Positions 1 to 11,574 of a stretch of DNA of 11,574 nucleotides are shown piece by piece. The stretch comes from Prevotellaceae bacterium (GTDB lineage: Bacteria > Bacteroidota > Bacteroidia > Bacteroidales > Bacteroidaceae). Location: positions 1-11,574 of the forward strand of contig JAJPZU010000112.1 of assembly GCA_021204165.1 (NCBI GenBank), in the 5' to 3' direction. Under the pieces are notes generated by a model, which was not told where the DNA came from, made no database searches, and saw nothing but the letters and a program-made list of their open reading frames with translations. Position 1 is the first letter of the stretch. Each line of letters begins with the position of its first letter. The translations under genes and the position numbers were made by a program.

Positions 1-10
1 AAGTTAGGGG

Positions 11-129
11 AGGTGGCGCGTAGCGACGGAGGAGTCTGTCGAAAACACCCACCAACTACACACGAGGAGTCTGCTGAAAACATCCCGCTAAATATACATG
101 AGTAGTCTGTAAATACACTCACTTAAACA
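11..129. repeat. Left arm of the window-bracketing inverted repeat: 36-nt terminal core (11-46) followed inward by iterated GAGGAGTCTG-centred motifs
   Basis: AGGTGGCGCGTAGCGACGGAGGAGTCTGTCGAAAAC (11-46) equals the reverse complement of 11538-11574 except for one extra G in the right copy. The motif GAGGAGTCTG / GAGTAGTCTG recurs at 29-38, 64-73 and 100-109, each followed by a GAAAACAYCC-like tail. Weaker similarity to the right arm continues to about 129. Confidence 0.85.
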
Positions 130-159
130 AGAAGCATAATATTCCCACACGGAAACAGA

Positions 160-226: not shown

Positions 227-1681
227 CTATAAAGGCATGTTGCCATGCTTCTTCGGCGGATTGCTCTGATTCTTGTTACGAGTCATCTCCAGTGCCTGAA
301 TAAGACGTATGCGGGTGTCACACGGCTGTATGATTTCATCAATATAGCCAAGCTGTGCAGCCGGCATAGGATTGGCAAATTTACGTCGGTATTCCTCTAT
401 CGCCGCCGCGCGCTCTTCCGGCGAAGCCTTTCGGTAGAGAATGTTACATGCACCTTCCGCTCCCATCACGGCAATCTCCGCAGTCGGATAAGCTAAATTC
501 ACATCCGCACCGATACATTTGCTGTTCATCACAATGTATGCCCCGCCATAAGCCTTGCGCGTGATGAGTGTGAGCTTCGGTACTGTGGCCTCAGCAAAAG
601 CATACACAATCTTAGCCCCATGACGGATGATGCCGTTGTGCTCCTGATCTGTTCCCGGAAGGAAGCCCGGAACATCCTCCACCGCCACGAGCGGAATATT
701 AAAGCAGTCGCAGAAACGGATAAAGCGGGCAGCCTTGTCGCTTGCGTCAATATCGAGCGCACCGGCAAGGAAGTTTGGCTGATTTGCCACAAAACCCACT
801 GTGCGGCCGGCAAGACGTCCGAATCCTACTACAATGTTCTTGGCAAACTCGGTCATCACCTCGAAGAAATACTGCTGGTCGCATACCGGTTCTATGATAT
901 TGCGTATGTCATACGGCACATTAGGGTCTTCCGGAACCACATTGTCCAGTTCATGGCACACGCGGGTTATCTCATCTGTCACCGGATAGACAGGGGCATC
1001 TTCCATATTATTGGAAGGGATGAATCCAATCAGTTCGCGGATGGTCATCAGAGTCTCTTCCTCATCGCGGCAGACGAAATGGCTCACACCGCTCACACTG
1101 CTATGCGTCATGGCACCTCCGAGTGTCTCCTTGTCAACCGCTTCATTCGTCACGGCACGAACCACGTCCGGACCGGTGACAAACATCTGGCTCTGTCCCT
1201 TCACCATGAGAATGAAATCTGTCAGTGCAGGAGAATAGCACGACCCTCCGGCGCAAGGCCCGAGTATGGCAGAAATCTGCGGAATCACTCCGGATGCCAT
1301 CACGTTTTGCCGGAAGATGTGTGCAAAACCGGTCAGACTTTCCACTCCTTCCTGTATGCGTACACCTCCGGAATCGTTCAGACCGATAATCGGTGCTCCG
1401 TTTTTAAGGGCAAGTTCCTGCACTTTCACAATCTTCTGCGCGTTTGCCGCACTGAGAGAACCTCCCAATACCGCAAAATCAAAAGCATAGACGAAGACAA
1501 TGCGTCCGTCAATCTTGCCGTATCCGGAAATCACACCGTCGCCCTCCACACGCTTCTTGTCCATGCCGAAGTCGTTGCAACGATGCACCACATGCTTGTC
1601 CATTTCCACAAATGTTCCTTTGTCAAGAAGCAAATCTATGCGCTCACGTGCTGTGAGTCTCTGTATCTTATTGTCATTCAT
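227..1681 (-). CDS. Acyl-CoA carboxylase carboxyltransferase subunit (propionyl-CoA carboxylase beta / methylmalonyl-CoA decarboxylase alpha family)
   Basis: 484-aa ORF with family-typical strings LTARERIDLLLD, GDGVISGYGKIDGR, LNDSGGVRIQEG, GPCAGGSCYSPALTDF and MFVTGPDVV, plus a second carboxyltransferase half (PLVAVEDVPGFLPG). Its start overlaps the BCCP stop by 8 nt. Confidence 0.95.
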   Translation of the reverse strand: MNDNKIQRLTARERIDLLLDKGTFVEMDKHVVHRCNDFGMDKKRVEGDGVISGYGKIDGRIVFVYAFDFAVLGGSLSAANAQKIVKVQELALKNGAPIIGLNDSGGVRIQEGVESLTGFAHIFRQNVMASGVIPQISAILGPCAGGSCYSPALTDFILMVKGQSQMFVTGPDVVRAVTNEAVDKETLGGAMTHSSVSGVSHFVCRDEEETLMTIRELIGFIPSNNMEDAPVYPVTDEITRVCHELDNVVPEDPNVPYDIRNIIEPVCDQQYFFEVMTEFAKNIVVGFGRLAGRTVGFVANQPNFLAGALDIDASDKAARFIRFCDCFNIPLVAVEDVPGFLPGTDQEHNGIIRHGAKIVYAFAEATVPKLTLITRKAYGGAYIVMNSKCIGADVNLAYPTAEIAVMGAEGACNILYRKASPEERAAAIEEYRRKFANPMPAAQLGYIDEIIQPCDTRIRLIQALEMTRNKNQSNPPKKHGNMPL

Positions 1682-2192
1682 TGTTTTCGTTCAGTTTTAA
1701 TGTTATCAATGTCTGTCCGACCTTCACACTGTCGCCTTCTGCCACAAGCACAGAAAGCACCTCGCAATCAGCCGCGACCTTATAGTTCGACTGCATCTTC
1801 ATAGCCTCCATAGTCAGTACCGTGTCTCCGGCCTTCAGCTTGTCGCCCTGCTTGCAATACGCTTTTACTATCTTGCACGGCATCGGCGCCGTCACCTGAT
1901 CGCTCTGCACGGCATCCGTCTTTTTCCGCATACGCATGTATTTTGCCTGCGAGTCCAACATGTCAATCTGGTAAGTCGAATAGTTGACATTCACGCGGTA
2001 ATGCTTTCCTGCATCGCTCTTCACCAGCTCTGCCTTGTACGAGTTTCCATTGTGAATAATCGAACATGTTCCGTTTTGCAACATGGCCACATCCACATCA
2101 TAAACTTGTCCGTCTATATCAATCTTCACGTTGTTTCCGTCTTTGCTCAACAGCGTGACATCTACAATCTTGTTTCCAACCTGAATATCCAT
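1674..2192 (-). CDS. Biotin carboxyl carrier protein (biotin/lipoyl attachment domain protein)
   Basis: 172-aa ORF. The C-terminal biotinyl domain carries the biotinylation signature EAMKM (GDTVLTMEAMKMQSNYKV). It sits between the biotin carboxylase and carboxyltransferase genes. Confidence 0.9.
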   Translation of the reverse strand: MDIQVGNKIVDVTLLSKDGNNVKIDIDGQVYDVDVAMLQNGTCSIIHNGNSYKAELVKSDAGKHYRVNVNYSTYQIDMLDSQAKYMRMRKKTDAVQSDQVTAPMPCKIVKAYCKQGDKLKAGDTVLTMEAMKMQSNYKVAADCEVLSVLVAEGDSVKVGQTLITLKLNENNE

Positions 2193-2308
2193 TATAATCG
2201 TTTTTTAGTTTAAGTTCTGCCTGCACATCGTTCATGCGGCTTCAAAATTCCACGAAACCGGACACCATGCGGGCGGCAGGCAGATGGTTGTGCAATCTTA
2301 TCGTACCA

Positions 2309-3835
2309 TTATACTCTCAACACACCCTTCTGCAATCCGAATGTTCTCCAGCGATTGATGGCGGACTGTCCCTGTTTGCATTCAGCCGCCCCACCGGTAT
2401 TTTCCTCCAGATTCATAAGGTAGTCTATGTAGGCGGCAATCACCGCCATCTCTTCGCTCTCGTTCTTGAATCCCGGACGCGGACGCAGACGCTCCGCATT
2501 GCGCTCTATAAAATAGGTGTTGTAGTTTCCTTCACGGAAATCAGGCACATCAATGATGCGGCGCAAGTAGCGTATGTTCGTAGTCAGACCGACAATCTTA
2601 TATTCATACAGCACTCTCCTCATGCGCTCAATGGCATACTGTCTCTCCGTAGCCCAAACGATAAGCTTTCCAATCATCGGATCGTAATGTACGGGAATCT
2701 CATAGCCCTCATATACATAGCTGTCGATTCGGATACCAATGCCGTGAGGCTCTGTGAGCTGAACAATCGTTCCCGGCGAAGGCATGAAGTTATGCTCCGT
2801 ATCCTCCGCACAGATGCGGCACTCTATGGCATGTCCTCTTTGGCGGATATCCTCCTGACGGTAGCCCAGCGGTTGTCCGTCAGCAATAAGAATCTGCTGT
2901 TTCACAAGATCGACGCCGACAACTTCTTCCGTGATAGGATGCTCCACCTGAAGCCGGGTGTTCATTTCAAGGAAATAGAAATGATGGTGCTTATCCACAA
3001 GAAACTCAATGGTGCCGGCACCGATGTAGCCCACCGCTTTTGCCGCAGCCACCGCCTTCTCGCCCATTTCGCGGCGAAGAGTGTCATCAATAAACGGCGA
3101 CGGACTTTCTTCTACTATTTTCTGGTGACGACGCTGCACAGAACATTCGCGGTCGTAAAGATGGATGACATTGCCATGCTTGTCGCCAAGTATCTGAAAC
3201 TCTATGTGGTGAGGCTCCTCGACAAACTTTTCGATATAGACTGTATCATCGCCAAACGAAGCCATCGCCTCGTTCTTTGCCGCATTGTACATCTCTATCA
3301 CATCTTCTTCGCGTTCAATAAGTCTCATGCCTTTTCCGCCGCCACCCATAGAAGCCTTCAGCATCACGGGGAAGCCAATCTTTCGGCACACCTCCAAGGC
3401 TTCCTCGCCACTGCTCAATTGCTCCTGAGTTCCGGGCACAACGGGCACTCCCGCCTTTATCATCTGTATGCGGGCGGAAATCTTGTCGCCCATCAATTCC
3501 ATGGTTTCCGGCTTTGGACCGATGAAGATGATGCCTTCAGCTTCACAACGACGCGCAAACTCGGAATTTTCGGAAAGGAAACCGTATCCCGGGTGAATGG
3601 CATCCACTTTGTGCTTCTTTGCCGCCTCGATAATGTGGTCGATATTCAGGTAGCTGTCTGCCGACGACGCACCGCCGATACACTCTGCTTCGTTTGCAAA
3701 AACGACATGGCGCGACAGACGGTCGGCAGTGCTATAGACAGCCACAGAACGTATGCCCATTTCATAACAAGCACGCATCACCCGAATCGCAATCTCACCG
3801 CGATTGGCAACCAATACTTTTCTTATCATAAACAT
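2309..3835 (-). CDS. accC: Biotin carboxylase (ATP-grasp) subunit of acyl-CoA carboxylase
   Basis: 508-aa ORF with KVLVANRGEIAIRVMRA at the N-terminus, the glycine-rich ATP-grasp loop LKASMGGGGKGMR, and EMNTRLQVEHPITE. M1 or M3 could be the true start. Confidence 0.95.
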   Translation of the reverse strand: MFMIRKVLVANRGEIAIRVMRACYEMGIRSVAVYSTADRLSRHVVFANEAECIGGASSADSYLNIDHIIEAAKKHKVDAIHPGYGFLSENSEFARRCEAEGIIFIGPKPETMELMGDKISARIQMIKAGVPVVPGTQEQLSSGEEALEVCRKIGFPVMLKASMGGGGKGMRLIEREEDVIEMYNAAKNEAMASFGDDTVYIEKFVEEPHHIEFQILGDKHGNVIHLYDRECSVQRRHQKIVEESPSPFIDDTLRREMGEKAVAAAKAVGYIGAGTIEFLVDKHHHFYFLEMNTRLQVEHPITEEVVGVDLVKQQILIADGQPLGYRQEDIRQRGHAIECRICAEDTEHNFMPSPGTIVQLTEPHGIGIRIDSYVYEGYEIPVHYDPMIGKLIVWATERQYAIERMRRVLYEYKIVGLTTNIRYLRRIIDVPDFREGNYNTYFIERNAERLRPRPGFKNESEEMAVIAAYIDYLMNLEENTGGAAECKQGQSAINRWRTFGLQKGVLRV

Positions 3836-4352
3836 CTATATTTGGTTATACACTTTCTTCCATCTCAAAACAAAATATAATACGATATCAGAAAGCACAC
3901 TCCGAGAACCGCATGACAAAGCGGACAACTCACGAAAGAATACATATCCCAAGAATACATGAATACACAAAAAACACCGATATTCCATCCCGGAATCTCA
4001 GCAAAACAGTATTCTCAGTATTTTTCCGGCAGCTCTTATTCCCGAGAGCGGCATCTGAACATCGGCATCGGCAGGTCTTCTGACTTCTCCATTGGCAGCA
4101 CGGCCTTCCCAACCACAATTATTTACAGCCTCACGGCAATAACAAAGGTCAGTGGCACAACATGATGATGTGTTGCCATAAAAAACAGGAGTTACAGCTA
4201 CGGGTATAGTTACAGACTCACACTGTATTCCCTCTTAGTCTGTCCGTCTTTCCTGAGTGCTTCTTCCTGAAGTCCGCCATTCCCGAAATCAGATTAGGCA
4301 AATTCCAGTCTCAACAAGCCTCAAATGAAGAGGACAAGAACCAAATGCGCGG

Positions 4353-4360
4353 CAAAAGTA
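4353..4360 (-). promoter_or_regulatory. Candidate Bacteroidetes-type -7 promoter element (TACTTTTG on the minus strand)
   Basis: Exact match to the TAnnTTTG consensus, read on the minus strand. It lies downstream (in minus-strand sense) of the phased T-tract array and about 515 nt upstream of the accC start. No -33 TTTG is present at the expected spacing. Confidence 0.3.
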
Positions 4361-4424
4361 CACATAAAATCCGAATCCATGCACTTTTTACCATATTTTT
4401 ACTCCAAACATTCTATGAAACTCT

Positions 4425-4512
4425 TGTGTTTTCTCCGGTATTTCCCCTGTGCTTTTCCGGTATTTTCCCGGTGTTCTTCCTGTATTTTTCCTGTATTTTC
4501 CCGGTTTTTTCC
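4425..4512. repeat. Eight tandem 11-bp units (consensus CKGTNTTTTCC), a phased T/A-tract array
   Basis: The units are tgtgttttctc, cggtatttccc, ctgtgcttttc, cggtattttcc, cggtgttcttc, ctgtatttttc, ctgtattttcc and cggttttttcc, in exact 11-bp register. The period is not a multiple of 3, so the repetitive FPVFS-type peptides in the overlapping plus-strand ORFs are artefacts. Confidence 0.85.
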
Positions 4513-4558
4513 ATAAAAAAGCATGGGACATTCCGCTTCTTTCGGAAATGCCCCATGC
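4513..4558 (-). terminator. Rho-independent terminator of the NfeD-like/flotillin operon
   Basis: The minus strand reads GCATGGGGCATTTCCG-aaagaag-CGGAATGTCCCATGC, an approximately 15-bp GC-rich stem with one bulge and one G-U pair. TTTTTTAT follows immediately. The structure starts 21 nt after the flotillin stop codon (4579-4581). Confidence 0.8.
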
Positions 4559-4578
4559 ACCGTTTCTCTTTAGTTTAT

Positions 4579-5955
4579 TCAGTCTTCTACTTCTTCCGCA
4601 TCCACAGCAGGCTCTTCTTTTTTCTTCGCCAGATACTCCGGCAAATTAAGCCCCGCCATATCGAAAAGTTCGTTAAGCGGCGGAACAGACTTCATCAGTC
4701 CGGACACGAAACCGGCTGTAGAGCCTTTTCCGTCTGCACCACCGGCACCATTGTCCCAAACAGTCACATGGTCAATGTTGATACCCTTGACAGCCTCAAC
4801 CTGAGTCTTGACAAGCTCAGGAAGCTTTTCGAGCAGCAACAGCATGTATGCCTTGTTGGCATCTCCTCCGGCAGCCTGAACCATCTTGTCATAACCGGCA
4901 GCCTGCTTCGTCAGCACTTCATACAAACCTTTTGCTTCTGCCTCCATCTTGGCATAAATGGCATCTGCTTCACCCTTTGCATTGACACGCACGCGCTCTG
5001 CTTCCGCCTCCGCTTCGATGATAAGTCGTCTCTTCTCAATCTCCTGCGGAACGAGTACGTTGGCTGTTTCCGTAGAGCGTTCACGTTCTGCACGCGCTTC
5101 CTCAGCCTCGCGTTCTGCCGCGTATGCTTCCTGCAATGCCTTTGCCTGCTGTACTTTTTCTGAGGCTGTGGCTTTACGCTGTGCCTCCGCTTCCTTCTCA
5201 CGGCGATAAGCCTCGGATGCAGCAATGGCAACCTTCGCTTCGTTCTCACCCTTTACGGCTTCCGCATTGGCTTCGGCTGTACGTATGCGGGTTTCTCTCA
5301 CCGCTTCCGCCTTACCGATTTCACCGACTTTATCTTGCTCTGCCACTCTCACTTTTGCCTCATTTATCGCTTTGGCAGCAGCTTCACGTCCGAGAGCCTC
5401 TATATATCCGCTCTCATCTTTTATATCGGTCACGTTCACATTTATCAGACGAAGACCAATCTTTTTCAGTTCCACTTCTACATTGGCAGAAATGCTCTCA
5501 AGAAACTTGTCACGGTCGTTGTTCAGTTCCTCAATACTCATCGTGGCAATTACCAGACGCAACTGTCCGAAAAGAATATCACGCGCCAGTTCCTGTATCT
5601 GTGCAGCACTAAGTCCGAGCAAACGTTCCGCAGCTGCATTCATGCAATCGTGGTCTGTAGATATACCCACAGTGAAGCGGCTTGGCACATCCACACGGAT
5701 GTTCTGTTTGCTGAGCGCATTTGTCAGATTCGCATCAATACTGATTGGTGTAAGGCTAAGATAAGCATAGTCTTCGATTATAGGCCATACGAAAGCACCG
5801 CCGCCATGCACGCAACGTGCCGACGTTTTGCTGCTTTTACTCCCATAAATCACCAAAATTTTGTCCGAAGGACACCGTCTGTAACGATTCACAATGGAAA
5901 CGAACAGCGCAATAGCCACTACAGCGGCAATTACAATAAGATACATAGATTCCAT
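4579..5955 (-). CDS. Flotillin-like SPFH/band-7 family membrane protein (YqiK-like)
   Basis: 458-aa ORF with an N-terminal TM helix (YLIVIAAVVAIALFVSIV), an SPFH-like core, and a long Ala/Glu/Arg-rich coiled-coil (AEREAEEARAERER, IIEAEAEAERVRVNAKGEADA) typical of bacterial flotillins. It is paired with an upstream NfeD-like gene. Confidence 0.9.
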   Translation of the reverse strand: MESMYLIVIAAVVAIALFVSIVNRYRRCPSDKILVIYGSKSSKTSARCVHGGGAFVWPIIEDYAYLSLTPISIDANLTNALSKQNIRVDVPSRFTVGISTDHDCMNAAAERLLGLSAAQIQELARDILFGQLRLVIATMSIEELNNDRDKFLESISANVEVELKKIGLRLINVNVTDIKDESGYIEALGREAAAKAINEAKVRVAEQDKVGEIGKAEAVRETRIRTAEANAEAVKGENEAKVAIAASEAYRREKEAEAQRKATASEKVQQAKALQEAYAAEREAEEARAERERSTETANVLVPQEIEKRRLIIEAEAEAERVRVNAKGEADAIYAKMEAEAKGLYEVLTKQAAGYDKMVQAAGGDANKAYMLLLLEKLPELVKTQVEAVKGINIDHVTVWDNGAGGADGKGSTAGFVSGLMKSVPPLNELFDMAGLNLPEYLAKKKEEPAVDAEEVED

Positions 5956-6039
5956 AATTAATTATTTTAATATCCAACTTTTCAAGATTACAAGACCGGT
6001 TGCCGCATGAAGTGCCCCCTGTCTGAAGAAAGTTTCAAA

Positions 6040-6128
6040 TTCATCTCTCTTGGTCAAAAATTCTCATCCCTTTGGGTCAAAATTTTCATTCCTTTAGTCA
6101 AAAAAATCTCATCCCTTTGGGTCAAAGA
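6040..6128. repeat. Four tandem 21-24-bp direct repeats (TTCTCATCCCTTTGGGTCAAAA-like) in the NfeD-like/flotillin spacer
   Basis: Copies lie at 6040-6060, 6061-6082, 6083-6106 and 6107-6128. Copies 2 and 4 share the exact 20-mer tctcatccctttgggtcaaa (6062-6081 and 6107-6126). Copy 4 overlaps the stop codon of the NfeD-like gene (6122-6124). Confidence 0.85.
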
Positions 6129-6700
6129 TTCTCTACCACCAGCATTTCTCCGCCGACAACATCAGTAATCCGCACCTTGCGCCCTGTGGTTATCGCCTCA
6201 CCCTCTGTAACCGCATCCAGTTCATGCACGGAACCGTTCACACTTATCTGCACTTTTCCTCTGCCGCTCTTCTTCTCCGGAATGCGCAGATAGACATCTG
6301 CCACACGTCCCTTGCAATATTCAATGCGGAAGGCGCCGTTTGCCTCCAGCTTCTTGGTCTGCTTGTAGATAAAGAAGAACATCCACACAAAAAACAAGCC
6401 TACGGCTGCTGCCACGAGTGCCAGCAACACAGCATTACCCATCAGCGAATGCAGACAGACACCTGCCCAGCCGAAGCCCACAAAGAAATTGACAAGGCTC
6501 CTTATAGAGAACAACGACAGTCCTCCTCCCAAATCCATTGTGTCTCCGGCATCAAAATCGACATCTATGTCGCTTGAATCCATTCCGAACAACGTAAGCA
6601 GAAGCTGTATTACAAACACAGCTGACCCGACAAGTGCACAAACCCAGAACACTTGCTGCATAGTTTCAAGTCCACTGAACCAAATTGAAAAACTCTCCAT
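6122..6700 (-). CDS. NfeD/YqiJ-like membrane protein (OB-fold C-terminal tail), partner of the flotillin gene
   Basis: 192-aa ORF with several hydrophobic helices (VFWVCALVGSAVFVIQLLLTLF, LVNFFVGFGWAGVCL, AVLLALVAAAVGLFFVWMFFFIY). The beta-rich C-terminus (GRGKVQISVNGSVHELDAVTEGEAITTGRKVRITDVVGGEMLVV) resembles the NfeD OB domain. The gene order NfeD-then-SPFH is canonical. Confidence 0.8.
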   Translation of the reverse strand: MESFSIWFSGLETMQQVFWVCALVGSAVFVIQLLLTLFGMDSSDIDVDFDAGDTMDLGGGLSLFSIRSLVNFFVGFGWAGVCLHSLMGNAVLLALVAAAVGLFFVWMFFFIYKQTKKLEANGAFRIEYCKGRVADVYLRIPEKKSGRGKVQISVNGSVHELDAVTEGEAITTGRKVRITDVVGGEMLVVENL

Positions 6701-6899
6701 ATTCTAATTAGTTTTACGGTTATATAAATCATATTCTGAAATGATATGTCCACCATCTATTTTACAAAGAGGGAACATCCTTAAAAAAAATAACATTACC
6801 AGACTGCATTTTTCATTAAACACTCTCCTTCTCACTGCATTTTCATAATTCATAAAAGACTCCGATTAATTATTTTAATGATAAATGCCAATCTTATAA

Positions 6900-7580
6900 T
6901 TACCATACATATTGCGATGGATATTTTACTTGCATGAAAGTGAAGCCATGCCCCATTACGCTATGGTGAGAAGTCGTCTGTGCTGTCATATTTGATACAA
7001 TACTGCCAAACACCTGCATATTTGCTCTTGCGTCACCGCGTGAAGCAAGAATGGGTGCATCAGGGACATCGTAATCGCGCCATGCAAATAAGCAGACCTT
7101 TTGGGGATATGTCAAGAGATTTACAGCTGTTGTAGATTCTTGAATCAAAACTTCTATCGATTTAAGCATTTGCTGTCTGGCTTTTGCCCGTTTCCCTTCC
7201 GGGTATTTTCCCGTATTAGGCTCAACATATTTTTCCTCATAACAACACAAGTCACAGAATACAACTTTTTCATGTACCATTCCTGTCTCTGTCATTAATA
7301 AATCACATCGGTCTTTAATATTGGCAGTAGTGCCTGCAAATTGTTCGATATACTTTTCAAAACGAACCACAGCAATTTCCTTGCCATTATTATTCACCTT
7401 CAGAACTTCTTTATTGCATTCATTACGGTAAGCCCTTTCAGGCAATTGCTGACATCGTATGCAACTCTTGGAGTCGGTTTCTGAGAAAGGTTCGCGTATT
7501 CTGTAGAGAGGCACTTCTACTTCTTGTGGATTTATGCCATAATGGAGCGGGAATGCCTTTTTAAGAAAAGATTCTATCAT
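6900..7580 (-). CDS. Hypothetical 226-aa Cys-rich protein, putative effector partner of the upstream ATPase; no family assigned
   Basis: Uninterrupted 226-aa ORF whose ATG overlaps the ATPase stop (ATGA at 7577-7580). It contains CIRC (CxxC) and CDLCC cysteine clusters. Possible catalytic-type strings are LLMTETG, YEEK and WRDYDVPD. I recognise no family signature. Confidence 0.7.
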   Translation of the reverse strand: MIESFLKKAFPLHYGINPQEVEVPLYRIREPFSETDSKSCIRCQQLPERAYRNECNKEVLKVNNNGKEIAVVRFEKYIEQFAGTTANIKDRCDLLMTETGMVHEKVVFCDLCCYEEKYVEPNTGKYPEGKRAKARQQMLKSIEVLIQESTTAVNLLTYPQKVCLFAWRDYDVPDAPILASRGDARANMQVFGSIVSNMTAQTTSHHSVMGHGFTFMQVKYPSQYVW

Positions 7581-8737
7581 ACGTCAAGATTTACAAATTC
7601 ATTATAAATGTGACTCATCAACTCTGAGAGGTCGTAAGTATCTACAATCCACCGTCCGCGTTCATTTTGGACAAGCAAATCTTGTATCTCTCCTTCATAT
7701 ATTCGATAAACAGCCGTGTTAGTCCTGCTCAATTGGGCACGTACTGCATTTGTTTGGTTTAGTAAAACATTCAAGTAGTTAAGAATATACGGACTATGGG
7801 TCGCAAGCATCATATTAATTTCTCGATTTTCATCCGCATGTGTTGCCGACAGCACAATTTCTTCTATGAGTTTGCACTGTGCATCAGGGAACAGACTTAA
7901 CTCAGGTTCTTCAATATGGATATATACTTGTTTCTTCAAATCGCTGGGTTCTGCGACAGCCCGAAACTTGTTCAATCTTTCCATATCATACAGATAGTTC
8001 AGGACAGAGCGCTTGAATGCGTCCTTAAATGAAAAGCCATTTGCGCTGGCATAGTTCTTTACAATCAAAGCGACCGATGCTGACGTTTGAATGCCGGATG
8101 AAGCTTCTCGTAAGTCGATTGGCTCATGACGGCTGTCATTTGGAATGACGGTGTAGCGTGTAGGCTTACCTTTGGGGTGGGTTATCTGAAGCTTCATGCC
8201 TATATAGTCCAACGGTATCTCTTTGTCGTTTGCCGATGCTCTGACAAAATCATTGTTTGTTTCATGAAAATAAAATCCCAAGGTTGCACCTGTGTTTTGG
8301 GATGCCTTTTGCGCCCATGTCGGAATGATGTTTCGGTTTTCAGAGATATAGGACACTTTGTTGAACACCAAATGGTCAGAAGATATAATGGGAAGTCTGC
8401 CTAATTTCTTGTTTTCCATCAAGATGGTGTATTCCGTTTCATCATCCATGACTACACTATACCTAATTACACTTGACGAGTCAAGCATTTTATACATTCC
8501 CGTTTCTTTCATCATCGAATCGAAGCGCATCCTGAAAGGAGAGCTTGTTATTTTTGAATGCTTCAAATAAGAACGGATGTTTGCCATTTTGTACAGATAG
8601 CGCATCATGCTTATCAGCTTCATCAGTGTGCTTTTACCACTTGCGGATTCACCAATCAACACAGTGAATGGCAGAAGGCCAAGGTTCTCAATGTGCTTTA
8701 GCGGACCAATATTTTTAATTGTTATAAATTCCTTCAT
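7577..8737 (-). CDS. Stand-alone ABC/SMC-like ATPase (AAA_15/AAA_21-type), defence-associated architecture
   Basis: Walker A is LIGESASGKSTL, the Walker-B-like strand is VYIHIEEPELSLFP, and the H-loop-like motif is LATHSPYILNYL. The ORF track extends to 8815, but MKEFITIKNIGPL (ATG at 8735-8737) matches the usual N-terminus of this ATPase class, so the 26-aa extension is probably not translated. Confidence 0.88.
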   Translation of the reverse strand: MKEFITIKNIGPLKHIENLGLLPFTVLIGESASGKSTLMKLISMMRYLYKMANIRSYLKHSKITSSPFRMRFDSMMKETGMYKMLDSSSVIRYSVVMDDETEYTILMENKKLGRLPIISSDHLVFNKVSYISENRNIIPTWAQKASQNTGATLGFYFHETNNDFVRASANDKEIPLDYIGMKLQITHPKGKPTRYTVIPNDSRHEPIDLREASSGIQTSASVALIVKNYASANGFSFKDAFKRSVLNYLYDMERLNKFRAVAEPSDLKKQVYIHIEEPELSLFPDAQCKLIEEIVLSATHADENREINMMLATHSPYILNYLNVLLNQTNAVRAQLSRTNTAVYRIYEGEIQDLLVQNERGRWIVDTYDLSELMSHIYNEFVNLDV

Positions 8738-8916
8738 AATAAAGTTTTGTTTTTCAAACAATCTGATAAAGTATGATTTACCCAATAAAGATACTAATTT
8801 GTACTTCAACAGCAAAAAAAATCCTGTATTGTGACGCTAAAAACGTGAATTTATTACAGAAATGGCACTTTGTCATGTCAAATCAGAAGGTGAAGTGTCA
8901 AAACAGGAGATACAAT

Positions 8917-8924
8917 CCAAACTT
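8917..8924 (-). promoter_or_regulatory. Candidate -7 promoter element (TAAGTTTG on the minus strand) upstream of the ATPase cassette
   Basis: Matches TAnnTTTG on the minus strand. It lies in the AT-rich spacer between the ParB-like stop (8957) and the ATPase start, about 180 nt upstream of the ATG at 8737. Motif match only. Confidence 0.25.
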
Positions 8925-8956
8925 ATTGTTGCATGAACATCTGGGGCCAGAGCCGC

Positions 8957-9478
8957 CTAATCCTCCAGCCAGTCCTCCGACAAACTGAAGTCCTTGTCCG
9001 CAAACAAGTCCGCCAGCCCGGAAATCTGCTTCAGCCTCAACAGCTCATCCTTGTCCATGCCGATATTGCGCATAATCCACGCATCCGACATGCCCGCAGA
9101 CGTAAGCTCCGACACGATGTGGCTCATCAGCTCTATCGTGTGCGTACCCCTCGCCCTGTTATGACGTATGGTCGAAGCCATTCTGCACGAAATATCCTTG
9201 TCTATCACCGACACGGGAAGCATCCCCTTCTCCCTGTCATAAATTCGTTTCGATGTCTTCATCACCAGATAGCGGTGGAATCCATCTACAATCTCATACT
9301 TGTCCTCGTCCTTCAAGTAATAGCACACGCAAGGCATGGTGTACCCGTCCTCCCATATCGACAGTTCCAACAGCTTCATCTCCGGAGGAGCCACCATGTT
9401 GGGGTTATAATTGTTCGCCACCACTTTCTCGATAGGCACTGCTATCACATTATATACCGGACTCTTAAAATTTTCCAT
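8957..9478 (-). CDS. ParB/sulfiredoxin-fold domain protein (IbrB-like / DndB-like)
   Basis: 173-aa ORF with ANNYNPN and EIVDGFHRYLV (a ParB-type DGxHR box). Its start overlaps the end of the PAPS-reductase-family gene by 14 nt. Confidence 0.85.
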   Translation of the reverse strand: MENFKSPVYNVIAVPIEKVVANNYNPNMVAPPEMKLLELSIWEDGYTMPCVCYYLKDEDKYEIVDGFHRYLVMKTSKRIYDREKGMLPVSVIDKDISCRMASTIRHNRARGTHTIELMSHIVSELTSAGMSDAWIMRNIGMDKDELLRLKQISGLADLFADKDFSLSEDWLED

Positions 9479-10763
9479 ATTCCAATGCTTTATATTTTCT
9501 CATCACACTTTCTCGTCTGCTCTTCTCATTCTTGGTCAGGGTAAAGCCCATGTACTTACACACATGGTCGTTTCTCAGTATGCAGATGCAGACACGCTTG
9601 AATGTCGGAATCTCCCGAAACTCCGGAATGTCTATGTCGTCAACGTACTCCATCATGACCGGTCTTTTGTTAGTGCGGTATGCCGTGGTCGTCCCAACCG
9701 TAAACTTCACCCCTGCCGCACGCAATTTTTCAATGGTCTCATCGCTCAGACATCCGCCTTTCGTCCTCCAGAATCTCATGCTCACACCTATCTTGTCCAG
9801 ATAATTGCGGCACACCTTCTCCGGCAACGTGTCCAGCAGAAAGTACATGTACTTTTTCCAAGAAAATCCGTGAGGACATTTTATCGACTTCCATCCCATA
9901 GCCGTCGTATTCCCGTAGATGCCGGAAAAATTGACACCATTGACACGGCTGACCATCCGCCCCCACATGTCGGGGTCTATCGCCCGATAGACACTCAGCG
10001 TAGGTATGGCATGAGAAATGAACGGACTTGCCACCCGCTGCCGCCCAATCGGAATGCCCGCACGCGAATAAAGGTCATAAAGCGGATTATAAGTCCATCC
10101 GAATTTTCCGTTTGCCGTCCAGATGTCAGATGTTTTCCAGTCATAAAGCGGATAAGCGTTATACACATGTGCAGCAAGCTTATGTGTCCATTTGTAATGC
10201 GAAAGCCGCCGGTAGTTCTTGGCATTGTGTATGGCCGTCCACCGGTTAAAACTCTCCTGCGTCCTTATGCCTACAAGACAACATATACGTTCACATTTCT
10301 TCCGGTTGCGCAGCCAAGGGGCGAAAAGATACTGGAAGTCATAGTCCCACAAGGCATCAGTGAAGAAATTGAAATCGGCTGCCGTATAAGCCCCCTCAGG
10401 CATTTCCCTCACCCATATATCCTTCTCCGATTCTCCCCAAGGTCTCCAATACGACTGGTGCATGGATGTACAGGTCATGACTTTGAAGGGCACGCAACAA
10501 TGGTACACCTCCAGAATGTCGCGATTCTCCGACAGGGTACGGCGCACATACTCCGTGGTCTGCCGGTACTGCACCTCGTAGTCCATGTGGAACACACCCA
10601 GCTTACGTCCCGGAGCATACCTCCGTATATAGTCTATGCACAGATTCAACAACACTCCGCTGTCCTTGCCACCCGAAAACGAGACATACACATAATCGAA
10701 ATAATCGAATATGATCTTCAGCCTCCTTTGCACTGCTTCATAAACATCAAGTTGCCTAATCAT
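9465..10763 (-). CDS. Phosphoadenosine-phosphosulfate (PAPS) reductase-family PP-loop protein with extended C-terminal domain (IbrA-like / DndC-like)
   Basis: 432-aa ORF with the PP-loop ATP-pyrophosphatase motif VSFSGGKDSGVLL near the N-terminus. The long Trp/Tyr-rich C-terminal extension resembles IbrA-type proteins. It is paired with a ParB-like gene. Confidence 0.88.
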   Translation of the reverse strand: MIRQLDVYEAVQRRLKIIFDYFDYVYVSFSGGKDSGVLLNLCIDYIRRYAPGRKLGVFHMDYEVQYRQTTEYVRRTLSENRDILEVYHCCVPFKVMTCTSMHQSYWRPWGESEKDIWVREMPEGAYTAADFNFFTDALWDYDFQYLFAPWLRNRKKCERICCLVGIRTQESFNRWTAIHNAKNYRRLSHYKWTHKLAAHVYNAYPLYDWKTSDIWTANGKFGWTYNPLYDLYSRAGIPIGRQRVASPFISHAIPTLSVYRAIDPDMWGRMVSRVNGVNFSGIYGNTTAMGWKSIKCPHGFSWKKYMYFLLDTLPEKVCRNYLDKIGVSMRFWRTKGGCLSDETIEKLRAAGVKFTVGTTTAYRTNKRPVMMEYVDDIDIPEFREIPTFKRVCICILRNDHVCKYMGFTLTKNEKSRRESVMRKYKALEYGKF

Positions 10764-11164
10764 TCCTTACGTCCTCCGGCATATACCATCTTGTCATAAT
10801 TCTTCCATTCCCTATGTGTCCTGAAGCCGTTGCGTGCAAAGTCAGCCACATGACGCTTGTGTACGACTGCGGTCAGCACAGTCCTGCTCACCGACTCCGC
10901 CACCACCCTGTCGAGCAGAGCATCAATGAGCAAAGAATCGTCGCCCTTGATATAATAATTGTCAATACAGGCTTCACGCTCTTTCTCCTTTACCGGAATG
11001 AATCCGATTACCTCCTTTTTCTCTATGGCCACATACCATTTGTGATGACGGGAGGTCTTGAAGGGATAATTGTTGTTGAGCCTCAACACTGCCGCATTCA
11101 TCACCAGCGGTGCCACCAGCTCATAAAGGCGGGAAGATGTGCCTTCTAAAATCTCAATATTCAT
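10760..11164 (-). CDS. Small GNAT-like (acetyltransferase-fold) protein, function unknown
   Basis: 134-aa ORF whose stop overlaps the next start (ATGA at 10760-10763). The C-terminal VADFARNGFR resembles the GNAT motif-B region, but the usual R/QxxGxG/A acetyl-CoA loop is not evident. The fold call is therefore tentative. Confidence 0.55.
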   Translation of the reverse strand: MNIEILEGTSSRLYELVAPLVMNAAVLRLNNNYPFKTSRHHKWYVAIEKKEVIGFIPVKEKEREACIDNYYIKGDDSLLIDALLDRVVAESVSRTVLTAVVHKRHVADFARNGFRTHREWKNYDKMVYAGGRKE

Positions 11165-11312
11165 AAAAACAGTCTTTTTGATTCTTGCCTATCCCGACTT
11201 CCGAATCATGAGAGTCTCGGTCTTATAAAGAAGATACATCAGTTGCCACATCCGTAATCTATAAACAGCAGACATCATGAACCATCAAAGTCAAGTAATG
11301 CAATAAACTATG

Positions 11313-11320
11313 CAAAAGTA
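11313..11320 (-). promoter_or_regulatory. Candidate -7 promoter element (TACTTTTG on the minus strand) for the GNAT-like/PAPS-reductase/ParB operon
   Basis: Exact TAnnTTTG match on the minus strand, about 150 nt upstream of the first gene of the operon (ATG at 11162-11164). No other gene lies between. No -33 element is seen. Confidence 0.35.
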
Positions 11321-11424
11321 CGACAAATACCTTTTTTATTCTACCCGATGTCATATTTTTTACAAGAAGAATACTTAGATACTGTTTTTTAGAAGCCGTT
11401 TGTTTAAATGAATGTATTCAACAA

Positions 11425-11574
11425 TTTTAAGCTTGTCTATTTAACGGACTCCTCATGTGTATTTAGTGGAATGTTTTTATATTTGGTGGGGTGTTCTCGG
11501 CAGACTCCTCATGTGTGAATTGTATGTGTTAGCAGACGTTTTCGACAGACTCCTCCGTCGCTACCGCGCCACCT
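11425..11574. repeat. Right arm of the window-bracketing inverted repeat: 37-nt terminal core (11538-11574) plus three inverted iterations of the GAGGAGTCTG motif
   Basis: CAGACTCCTC / CGGACTCCTC occurs at 11546-11555, 11501-11510 and 11445-11454. The reverse complement of 11425-11457 (catgaggagtccgttaaatagacaagcttaaaa) aligns with the left arm at 97-129. The core ends exactly at the last base of the window. Confidence 0.85.

Follow-up and report, generated by a model that had tools for sequence, protein, structure and literature searches.

The DNA analysed here (the window) is a complete 11,574-bp contig of a metagenome-assembled genome (MAG), and its ends are the ends of the contig. Ten clear genes, every one on the minus strand, lie between two pieces of a dispersed palindromic extragenic repeat family to which we give the name PE. 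A full PE is a near-perfect palindrome of 70–330 bp that runs from an outer tip, AGAARCTGTTTTAAA, through one to four units and an arm, CGTCGCTAC(C)GCGCCACC, to a hairpin, and from there outwards again as the mirror image. Each unit consists of a core, GAGGAGTCTG, and a tail, TYGAAKACAYCCAC. The pieces of PE in the window, and the acyl-CoA carboxylase genes beside the first of them, are as follows.

1–13, plus strand: loop and 3′ half of the hairpin at the PE centre, AAGTT-AGGGGAGG, with the 5′ half beyond the contig start; identical to CCTCCCCT/AAGTTAGGGGAGG in complete copies, with C-G/U-A covariation in the local hairpins
14–28, plus strand: inner arm, short variant, TGGCGCG-TAGCGACG, kept in 89 U1-type arms (consensus GcgcgGTAGCGACG)
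29–52, plus strand: Unit 1, GAGGAGTCTGTCGAAAACACCCAC, with a match to the GAGGAGTCTG core
64–87, plus strand: Unit 2, GAGGAGTCTGCTGAAAACATCCCG, at the 35-nt spacing that is the main spacing class of the family
100–130, plus strand: degenerate Unit 3, GAGTAGTCTGTAAATACACTCAC, and a last stretch resembling the other arm; outer edge of the left-hand PE half
227–1681, minus strand: carboxyltransferase of the acyl-CoA carboxylase set
1674–2192, minus strand: biotin carrier of the same set
2309–3835, minus strand: biotin carboxylase of the same set
11391–11430, minus strand: outermost module of the right-hand PE, with AGAAGCCGTTTGTTTAAATG... as a variant tip (compare AGAARCTGTTTTAAA)
11431–11454, minus strand: Unit 3′, with the core match GAGGAGTCCG
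11487–11510, minus strand: Unit 2′, at the 45-nt spacing that is the second spacing class of the family
11532–11555, minus strand: Unit 1′, with both the inverted match and a core match
11556–11574, minus strand: inner arm, long variant, CGTCGCTACCGCGCCACCT; the contig end cuts 5 bases into the hairpin stem

The other genes of the window encode a flotillin, an NfeD-like protein, an AAA_21 ATPase and its 226-aa partner, a 173-aa protein, a PAPS-reductase/DUF3440 protein and a 134-aa protein. A first-pass annotation of this DNA had inferred that the recombination protein acting on the ends is not encoded here; we likewise observed no transposase, integrase or resolvase among the genes of the 11,574 bp. 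The same gene order is found at 80–82% nucleotide identity in a 133-kb contig of a relative (L127; GCA_011262095.1), where the block has DUF5106/MatE genes on one side and PepSY genes on the other. The aligned parts correspond to window positions 229–4401, 4496–5969, 6120–6813 and 8951–11365. Homology to L127 thus begins at 229 on the left and stops at 11365 on the right, and the PE tip (AGAAGCCGTTTGTTTAAATG) follows 26 nt further on, at 11391. There are no PE units in the 20 kb of L127 around the syntenic block. As judged by this synteny, the DNA between the two arms of the window is evidently ordinary chromosomal DNA, not cargo. The operon of the window has a terminator-like hairpin at 196–170, upstream of PE; we considered PE as the operon terminator and set this aside, since the operon has this separate hairpin.

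Several features of the gene block were observed in passing. A cobalamin riboswitch (71.6 bits; gathering score 31.5) lies at 4053–4296 on the minus strand. It immediately precedes the biotin carboxylase/biotin carrier/carboxyltransferase operon and falls inside a stretch aligned with L127; its position implies B12 control of the acyl-CoA carboxylase. Positions 6814–8950 hold a two-gene module (6900–7580 and 7577–8815, minus strand) that is missing from the syntenic block of L127. It consists of the AAA_21 ATPase, with the candidate defence protein PDC-M29A of PADLOC as best match (2e-26), and the 226-aa protein, which belongs to no known family; the module is probably a small defence-type insertion. 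Two intergenic tandem arrays, one of 7.6 copies of an 11-nt unit (TTTTTCCGGTA; 4425–4512) and one of 4.1 copies of a 23-nt unit (TCATCCCTTTGGGTCAAAAATTC; 6041–6133), coincide with gaps in the L127 alignment. The triad of the 134-aa protein, the PAPS-reductase/DUF3440 protein and the 173-aa protein (8957–11164, minus strand) is kept in L127 and in L134, a contig of a Bacteroides sp. MAG. The 134-aa protein has more than 240 homologues, neither it nor the 173-aa protein has a Pfam match, and the PAPS-reductase of the triad has weak BrxP/DndC-like matches.

As had been noted before, the two ends of the window are related by inversion: positions 11–46 (AGGTGGCGCGTAGCGACGGAGGAGTCTGTCGAAAAC) are the reverse complement of 11538–11574 except for one extra G. 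A repeat search of the window gave a longest perfect inverted core of 27 nt (20–46 and 11538–11564), with weaker inverted similarity farther in (44–96 and 11478–11530; 53 nt, 77%) and an innermost similarity of 19 nt at 89% (112–130 and 11400–11418). The description of three GAGGAGTCTG units in each arm was likewise correct. With up to one mismatch, the core occurs at six sites in the window, none of them away from the ends: 29, 64 and 100 on the plus strand, and 11445, 11501 and 11546 on the minus strand. The chance expectation is 0.54 sites per window, and none of 200 shuffles gave six. The units are 35/36 nt apart in the left arm and 45/56 nt apart in the right arm, in agreement with the reported difference in spacing, and Tandem Repeats Finder describes 29–109 as 2.3 copies of a 36-nt unit. 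One detail of the earlier description did not hold. The similarity had been placed from position 11 inwards; bases 1–10 (AAGTTAGGGG) belong to the repeat as well, and match other PE copies all the way to base 1. Positions 1–28 agree base for base with ...AAGTTAGGGGAGGTGGCGCGTAGCGACG of other copies, for example that in L083, where the counterpart of the window start is the loop and 3′ stem half of the hairpin, followed by the arm.

Aligned to the PE architecture, positions 1–130 of the window match the right half of a PE copy, and positions 11391–11574 match most of a left half. Five same-locus Logan contigs from sister samples stop in the repeats, at positions equivalent to 33, 11464, 11513, 11528 and 11545 of the window, and all of the public contigs with the terminal genes of the window stop inside repeats. 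We infer from the architecture of the family that the two halves come from two different PE copies; short-read assembly would have broken inside PE repeats at both ends. In our judgement it is likely that the ends of the window are halves of two dispersed PE copies, not of one transposon, and that the gene block is ordinary chromosomal DNA. For a contig broken inside PE repeats, nothing suggests that the intervening 11.5 kb is mobile.

PE is found in an uncultured Prevotellaceae/Bacteroidaceae lineage of gut Bacteroidales. In a scan of 185,579 species-representative genomes, GAGGAGTCTGNNGAAAACA was present in 63 stretches, with ~69 expected by chance (2 × 596 Gb / 4^17); 10 of the contigs belong to a single MAG, Bacteroidaceae RGIG8745, from water-deer colon. 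The exact arm-plus-core 19-mer GTAGCGACGGAGGAGTCTG was found at 58 loci in metagenome contigs, many of them at contig ends, and all 58 loci come from a single pocket-mouse gut co-assembly. The same 19-mer had no match in viral contigs. Allowing one mismatch, we observed 92 arms in 495 kb of pocket-mouse DNA, 88 of which lie outside crude ORF calls, though ~80% of that DNA is coding. These arms include 24 local minus/plus pairs across a hairpin, 25 solo arms at contig ends and 19 solo arms in contig interiors. The genes flanking PE are convergent in 11 cases, tandem in 10 and divergent in 4. The window locus was not found among the 58 pocket-mouse loci; it is distinct from the scanned loci, which places PE in at least three related sources, and L134 adds diverged relatives from a fourth MAG. 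No PE sequences were found in the literature searched, and the family appears to be undescribed, of the REP/BIME/MITE kind.

These data bear directly on the first-pass annotation, which had read the two ends of the window as the ends of a transposon. The shared motif is a high-copy, dispersed extragenic repeat, and complete copies extend outwards beyond the supposed tip to a partner arm 54–151 nt away across the hairpin. The annotation had named each of these two outcomes as one that would count against its reading. The wider claim of an element related to mobile DNA fared better: PE is repetitive and is probably related to mobile DNA, but the two arms of the window do not belong together as the ends of a single 11.5-kb element.

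A diverged PE-like element adjoins an R2-like stretch (see below) at 5420–6062 of L134, with a CCTCCTCTAA hairpin half, an GGCAATTGCGG...GCGACG arm variant and an GAGGAATCTG unit. From these diverged copies, both PE and R2 look older and more widespread than exact-match scans show. R2 is the name we give to a second repeat family, of ~850 bp, with copies 72–80% identical to each other (L037, 3510–4400; L040, 4194–5017; L061, 223–1012; L019, 6961–7832) and more than 40 further partial or full copies in L069–L125. R2 lacks a conserved ORF, matches nothing in Rfam and does not occur in the window. Its ends resemble terminal inverted repeats (TTGACAAAATGATA...TATCATTTTGTCA), and it contains five iteron-like CAGYGCGCTG motifs ~22 nt apart. 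Half of the copies (22 of 44) have the tail of a PE unit 54–57 nt upstream of the 5′ anchor of R2, so that one end of R2 bears half a PE.

Complete PE copies vary in length and share a modular build. The unit spacings cluster at 33–37 and 42–46 nt, and the hairpin has the form CCTCCYCTAA-loop-TTAGRGGAGG. In the short form of PE there is a single hairpin stem of ~25 bp or longer and no centre; in the long form, a hairpin, a unique centre of ~70 nt and a second hairpin follow one another. Bounded complete copies are 70, 98, 124, 130 and 249 nt long, with the termini AGAARCTGTTTTAAA...TTTAAAACAGYTTCT. The 1-nt indel in the arm is a common polymorphism of the family (TACCGCGCC or TACGCGCC), for which 11 of 14 true pairs of arms are concordant. 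Beyond unit 1, the median identity between arms is 0.55 within a PE and 0.54 between PEs, with 0.61 for the arms of the window; with within-PE and between-PE identity so similar, the likeness of two arms cannot separate a one-PE from a two-PE model. Arm symmetry gave no support to nested self-insertion as the source of the unit arrays. We also considered a CRISPR array and rejected it, given at most four decaying units per arm, mirror symmetry and no cas genes.

Folded as single strands, the short forms and the 249-nt copy gave near-perfect hairpins of −51.5 to −92.2 kcal/mol, and the 70- and 98-nt copies folded at −20.9 and −34.5 kcal/mol. Complete PEs had fold z-scores of −8 to −20 relative to shuffled sequences. 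The two end pieces of the window alone folded no better than shuffles (z = −0.55 and +0.84), as expected of half-palindromes. Local hairpins covary among 18 long-form copies, at one position in each of two hairpins only: one position is U-A in 7 copies and C-G in 6, and the other is C-G in 8 and U-A in 6. Cross-hairpin pairing, between the left half of hairpin 1 and the right half of hairpin 2, is not conserved in these 18 copies, and the long cross-pairing stem proposed by RNAalifold was rejected, having no covariation. No PE matched an Rfam family at the gathering score; the sub-threshold matches were of the hairpin type (miRNA precursors) only.

We observed IS110-family elements inserted at the apex of the PE hairpin in four or more independent copies of PE. 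The insertion in L100 (1.3 kb; 12709–14078) splits hairpin 1 of a PE and encodes a 345-aa protein with the DEDD_Tnp_IS110 and Transposase_20 domains (PF01548, PF02371). The end of a second copy of the element is present in L080 (~5290–5319), and a relic of the left end in L124 (~3975–4000). A homologue with 82% identity occupies the same spot of the hairpin in three other metagenomes (L129, L130 and L131). The junctions in L100, L080/L130, L129 and L131 read CCTCCTCTAA(G)/IS/(C)TTAGAGGAGG; those of the homologue read CCTCCTCTAA-CT-(CTAACTTGCGG ... ATAGAAAG)-CT-TAGAGGAGG, with CT on both sides. The point of insertion is the apex of the commonest hairpin, CTCTAA-CT-TAGAG. A relative with 78% identity (L132) lies in an unrelated, non-PE site and has a different sequence at the place of the guide-like match.

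The 5′ non-coding region of the IS contains two 10-nt sequences of note in L100: CTCCTCTAAG (12851–12860), which matches the target, and ATAGAAAGCT (12916–12925), which matches the right end of the element itself. We infer that these matches are probably guides of the bridge-RNA type, in which case PE would serve as a landing pad in the manner of REP; targeting of REP sequences by IS110-family elements is on record (PMC1525189, PMC11208160, PMC12288879). The non-coding region had no match in Rfam, and in L129 it is present as a tandem duplication. The suggestion of the first-pass annotation that a recombinase encoded elsewhere acts on these repeats is thus borne out to the extent that an IS110-family element uses PE; the link observed is to the hairpin apex, whereas the annotation had placed it at the GAGGAGTCTG arrays. 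Separately, the ends of contigs L071 (~1–40), L093, L098 and L105 carry the end of another insert, ...AGATGTGTACAAAGAGTAGC/CTAACAGGGGAGG, at the position of the hairpin loop. The contigs break within this insert, which is therefore probably multi-copy as well, a second element that makes use of this site.

How PE itself came to be dispersed can be considered at lower confidence. The folding data show that PE DNA, or any transcript of it, can form a long hairpin of great stability. Mobility is suggested by the copy number and the defined termini. The most likely route would be mobilisation in trans: PE would be non-autonomous, and an enzyme that recognises hairpins, HUH/RAYT-like or of another type, would move it without duplicating the target. 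The units may be accessory binding sites. We give these steps tentatively. A target-site duplication, proposed earlier as a test of the window ends, was sought at six complete PE copies elsewhere, and the flanks of these copies share no direct repeat. No pair of distant tips enclosing an ORF, as expected of an autonomous partner, was found in the repeat-anchored DNA fetched. A tblastn search of ~0.6 Mb of the fetched DNA with an approximate RAYT (Y1 HUH) query gave no match. The 97 genes that flank PE match 134 Pfam families, none of them more than three times, and the recurrent families shown for these genes include no transposase or RAYT. Relatives lack PE in the orthologous intergenic regions. 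At three orthologous loci in two strains ~1.3% apart (~98.7% identity), the same PEs are present without gain or loss, and we found no empty PE site at close evolutionary distance. Copies decay by deletion between microhomologies, as seen once and as the only difference at these three loci: L041 and L082 differ by a 62-nt deletion between GTGG microhomologies.

The alternative that survives best, though we consider it unlikely, is that PE is an immobile cis-element of the host, multiplied by recombination or selected in place, either as an array for a nucleoid or regulatory protein or as an RNA hairpin that stabilises or terminates transcripts. The extragenic position of PE and the excess of convergent and tandem over divergent neighbours are consistent with such a role, as are the pairing of the local hairpins, preserved through C-G/U-A changes, and the stability of copies between the two strains. 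By contrast, the defined termini, modular build and variable length (70–330 nt) are those of an element, and amplification accounts better than independent origin for ~90 arms that are almost identical. A terminator function is further disfavoured by the terminator-like hairpin that the operon of the window already has, with no T-tract following the PE hairpin, and the host role in general by the orthologous intergenic regions of relatives that have no PE.

Less probable again, and to be held as a conjecture, is a joint proposal that extends the IS110 data: the PE hairpin would be a dedicated att-like site of bridge-RNA (IS110-type) recombinases, the long form would hold a mini-circle of ~95 nt in its integrated state, the short form would be what is left after excision, and the GAGGAGTCTG arrays would be accessory protein-binding sites. 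If this were true, PE would be a new non-autonomous element spread by RNA-guided recombination, going beyond a passive landing pad.

We think it highly improbable that the contig is a circle, either a plasmid or an excised circle, closed by one PE of which the two ends are the halves. Joining the termini would indeed restore the PE order, minus only a hairpin half or centre. However, the window has no genes for replication, mobilisation or plasmid partition except a small ParB-like ORF of the chromosomal triad, and in L127 and L134 the block runs on into chromosomal DUF5106, MatE and PepSY genes. The arm variants also disagree, with the short variant on the left and the long variant on the right, whereas true pairs mostly agree, and numerous contigs of the other metagenome end in PE or R2 in the same way. 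Searches for a phage or plasmid origin gave no viral-contig matches for PE or for R2, and no match to a PLSDB plasmid.

It is extremely improbable that the window is a single 11.5-kb transposon with GAGGAGTCTG arrays bound by a multimeric transposase (Tn7/Mu/Tn402-like) encoded elsewhere. Each arm does have a conserved tip and three inward-facing repeats, and the two spacing classes of the family (~35 and ~45 nt) could mirror protein phasing, but the window has no transposition genes and ends where the contig ends, its supposed cargo consists of housekeeping genes syntenic with a repeat-free relative, the repeat extends past the supposed tip (window positions 1–10), and most of the ~90 such arms have their partner 54–151 nt away, not kilobases. 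The recurrent Pfam families of the 97 PE-flanking genes also include no transposase.

We return to dispersed PE copies as the preferred reading of the window ends, and compare PE with known systems. Like PE, the ends of Tn7, Mu and Tn402/Tn5053 carry several similar short repeats, inverted in the two arms. Those ends, however, bound a gene-carrying element that has its own transposition genes and makes a 5-bp duplication, whereas the partner arm of a PE is 54–151 nt away and the 11.5 kb of the window are conserved chromosomal DNA. Inverted repeats at the ends of a short-read contig can thus mimic transposon ends and yet be points at which the assembler stopped, and PE explains part of the fragmentation of MAGs in this lineage.

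The BOX elements of Streptococcus pneumoniae are modular, as PE is, with an internal module of ~45 nt that varies in number between copies; BOX has the structure A-B(n)-C, is not a symmetric palindrome and has no sequence relation to PE. The bacterial MITEs, such as Correia of Neisseria, ERIC and RUP, are small, non-coding, intergenic and present in many copies; they have defined tips and, between long terminal inverted repeats, a unique centre that is short. All of these traits they share with PE, and MITEs are abundant in Bacteroidota (PMC11602168). Complete PE copies of 70–249 nt have the terminal inverted repeats, the small size and the absence of an ORF that characterise MITEs. They differ in having no target-site duplication, at six complete copies; no parent IS with the same tips was found in the repeat-anchored DNA examined.

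The closest parallel is with the REP/BIME/REPIN sequences of Proteobacteria (E. coli, Pseudomonas). Both are extragenic, high in copy number and hairpin-forming, usually arranged as inverted doublets around a short spacer, and built as mosaics of modules. The two are unrelated in sequence, and the hosts of PE are Bacteroidales; PE is also much longer: it reaches ~330 nt, iterates units of 35/45 nt and may include a 70-nt centre. A RAYT gene, the partner of REP/REPIN, was not found in the ~0.6 Mb of DNA examined; GTAG is present in the PE arm. PE nevertheless has the extragenic location, the many copies and the inverted hairpin doublets of REP. It also has the independent insertions at one position and the guide-like matches of an IS110 landing pad, and REP sequences, the targets of IS621 and ISPpu9/10, likewise receive IS110-family insertions at a fixed position of the palindrome (PMC1525189, PMC11208160, PMC12288879). 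These comparisons suggest that PE is a REP-like element of Bacteroidales and a natural target of an IS110-family (bridge-RNA) element, and that the two form a natural target/guide pair in gut Bacteroidales for the study and engineering of bridge recombinases.
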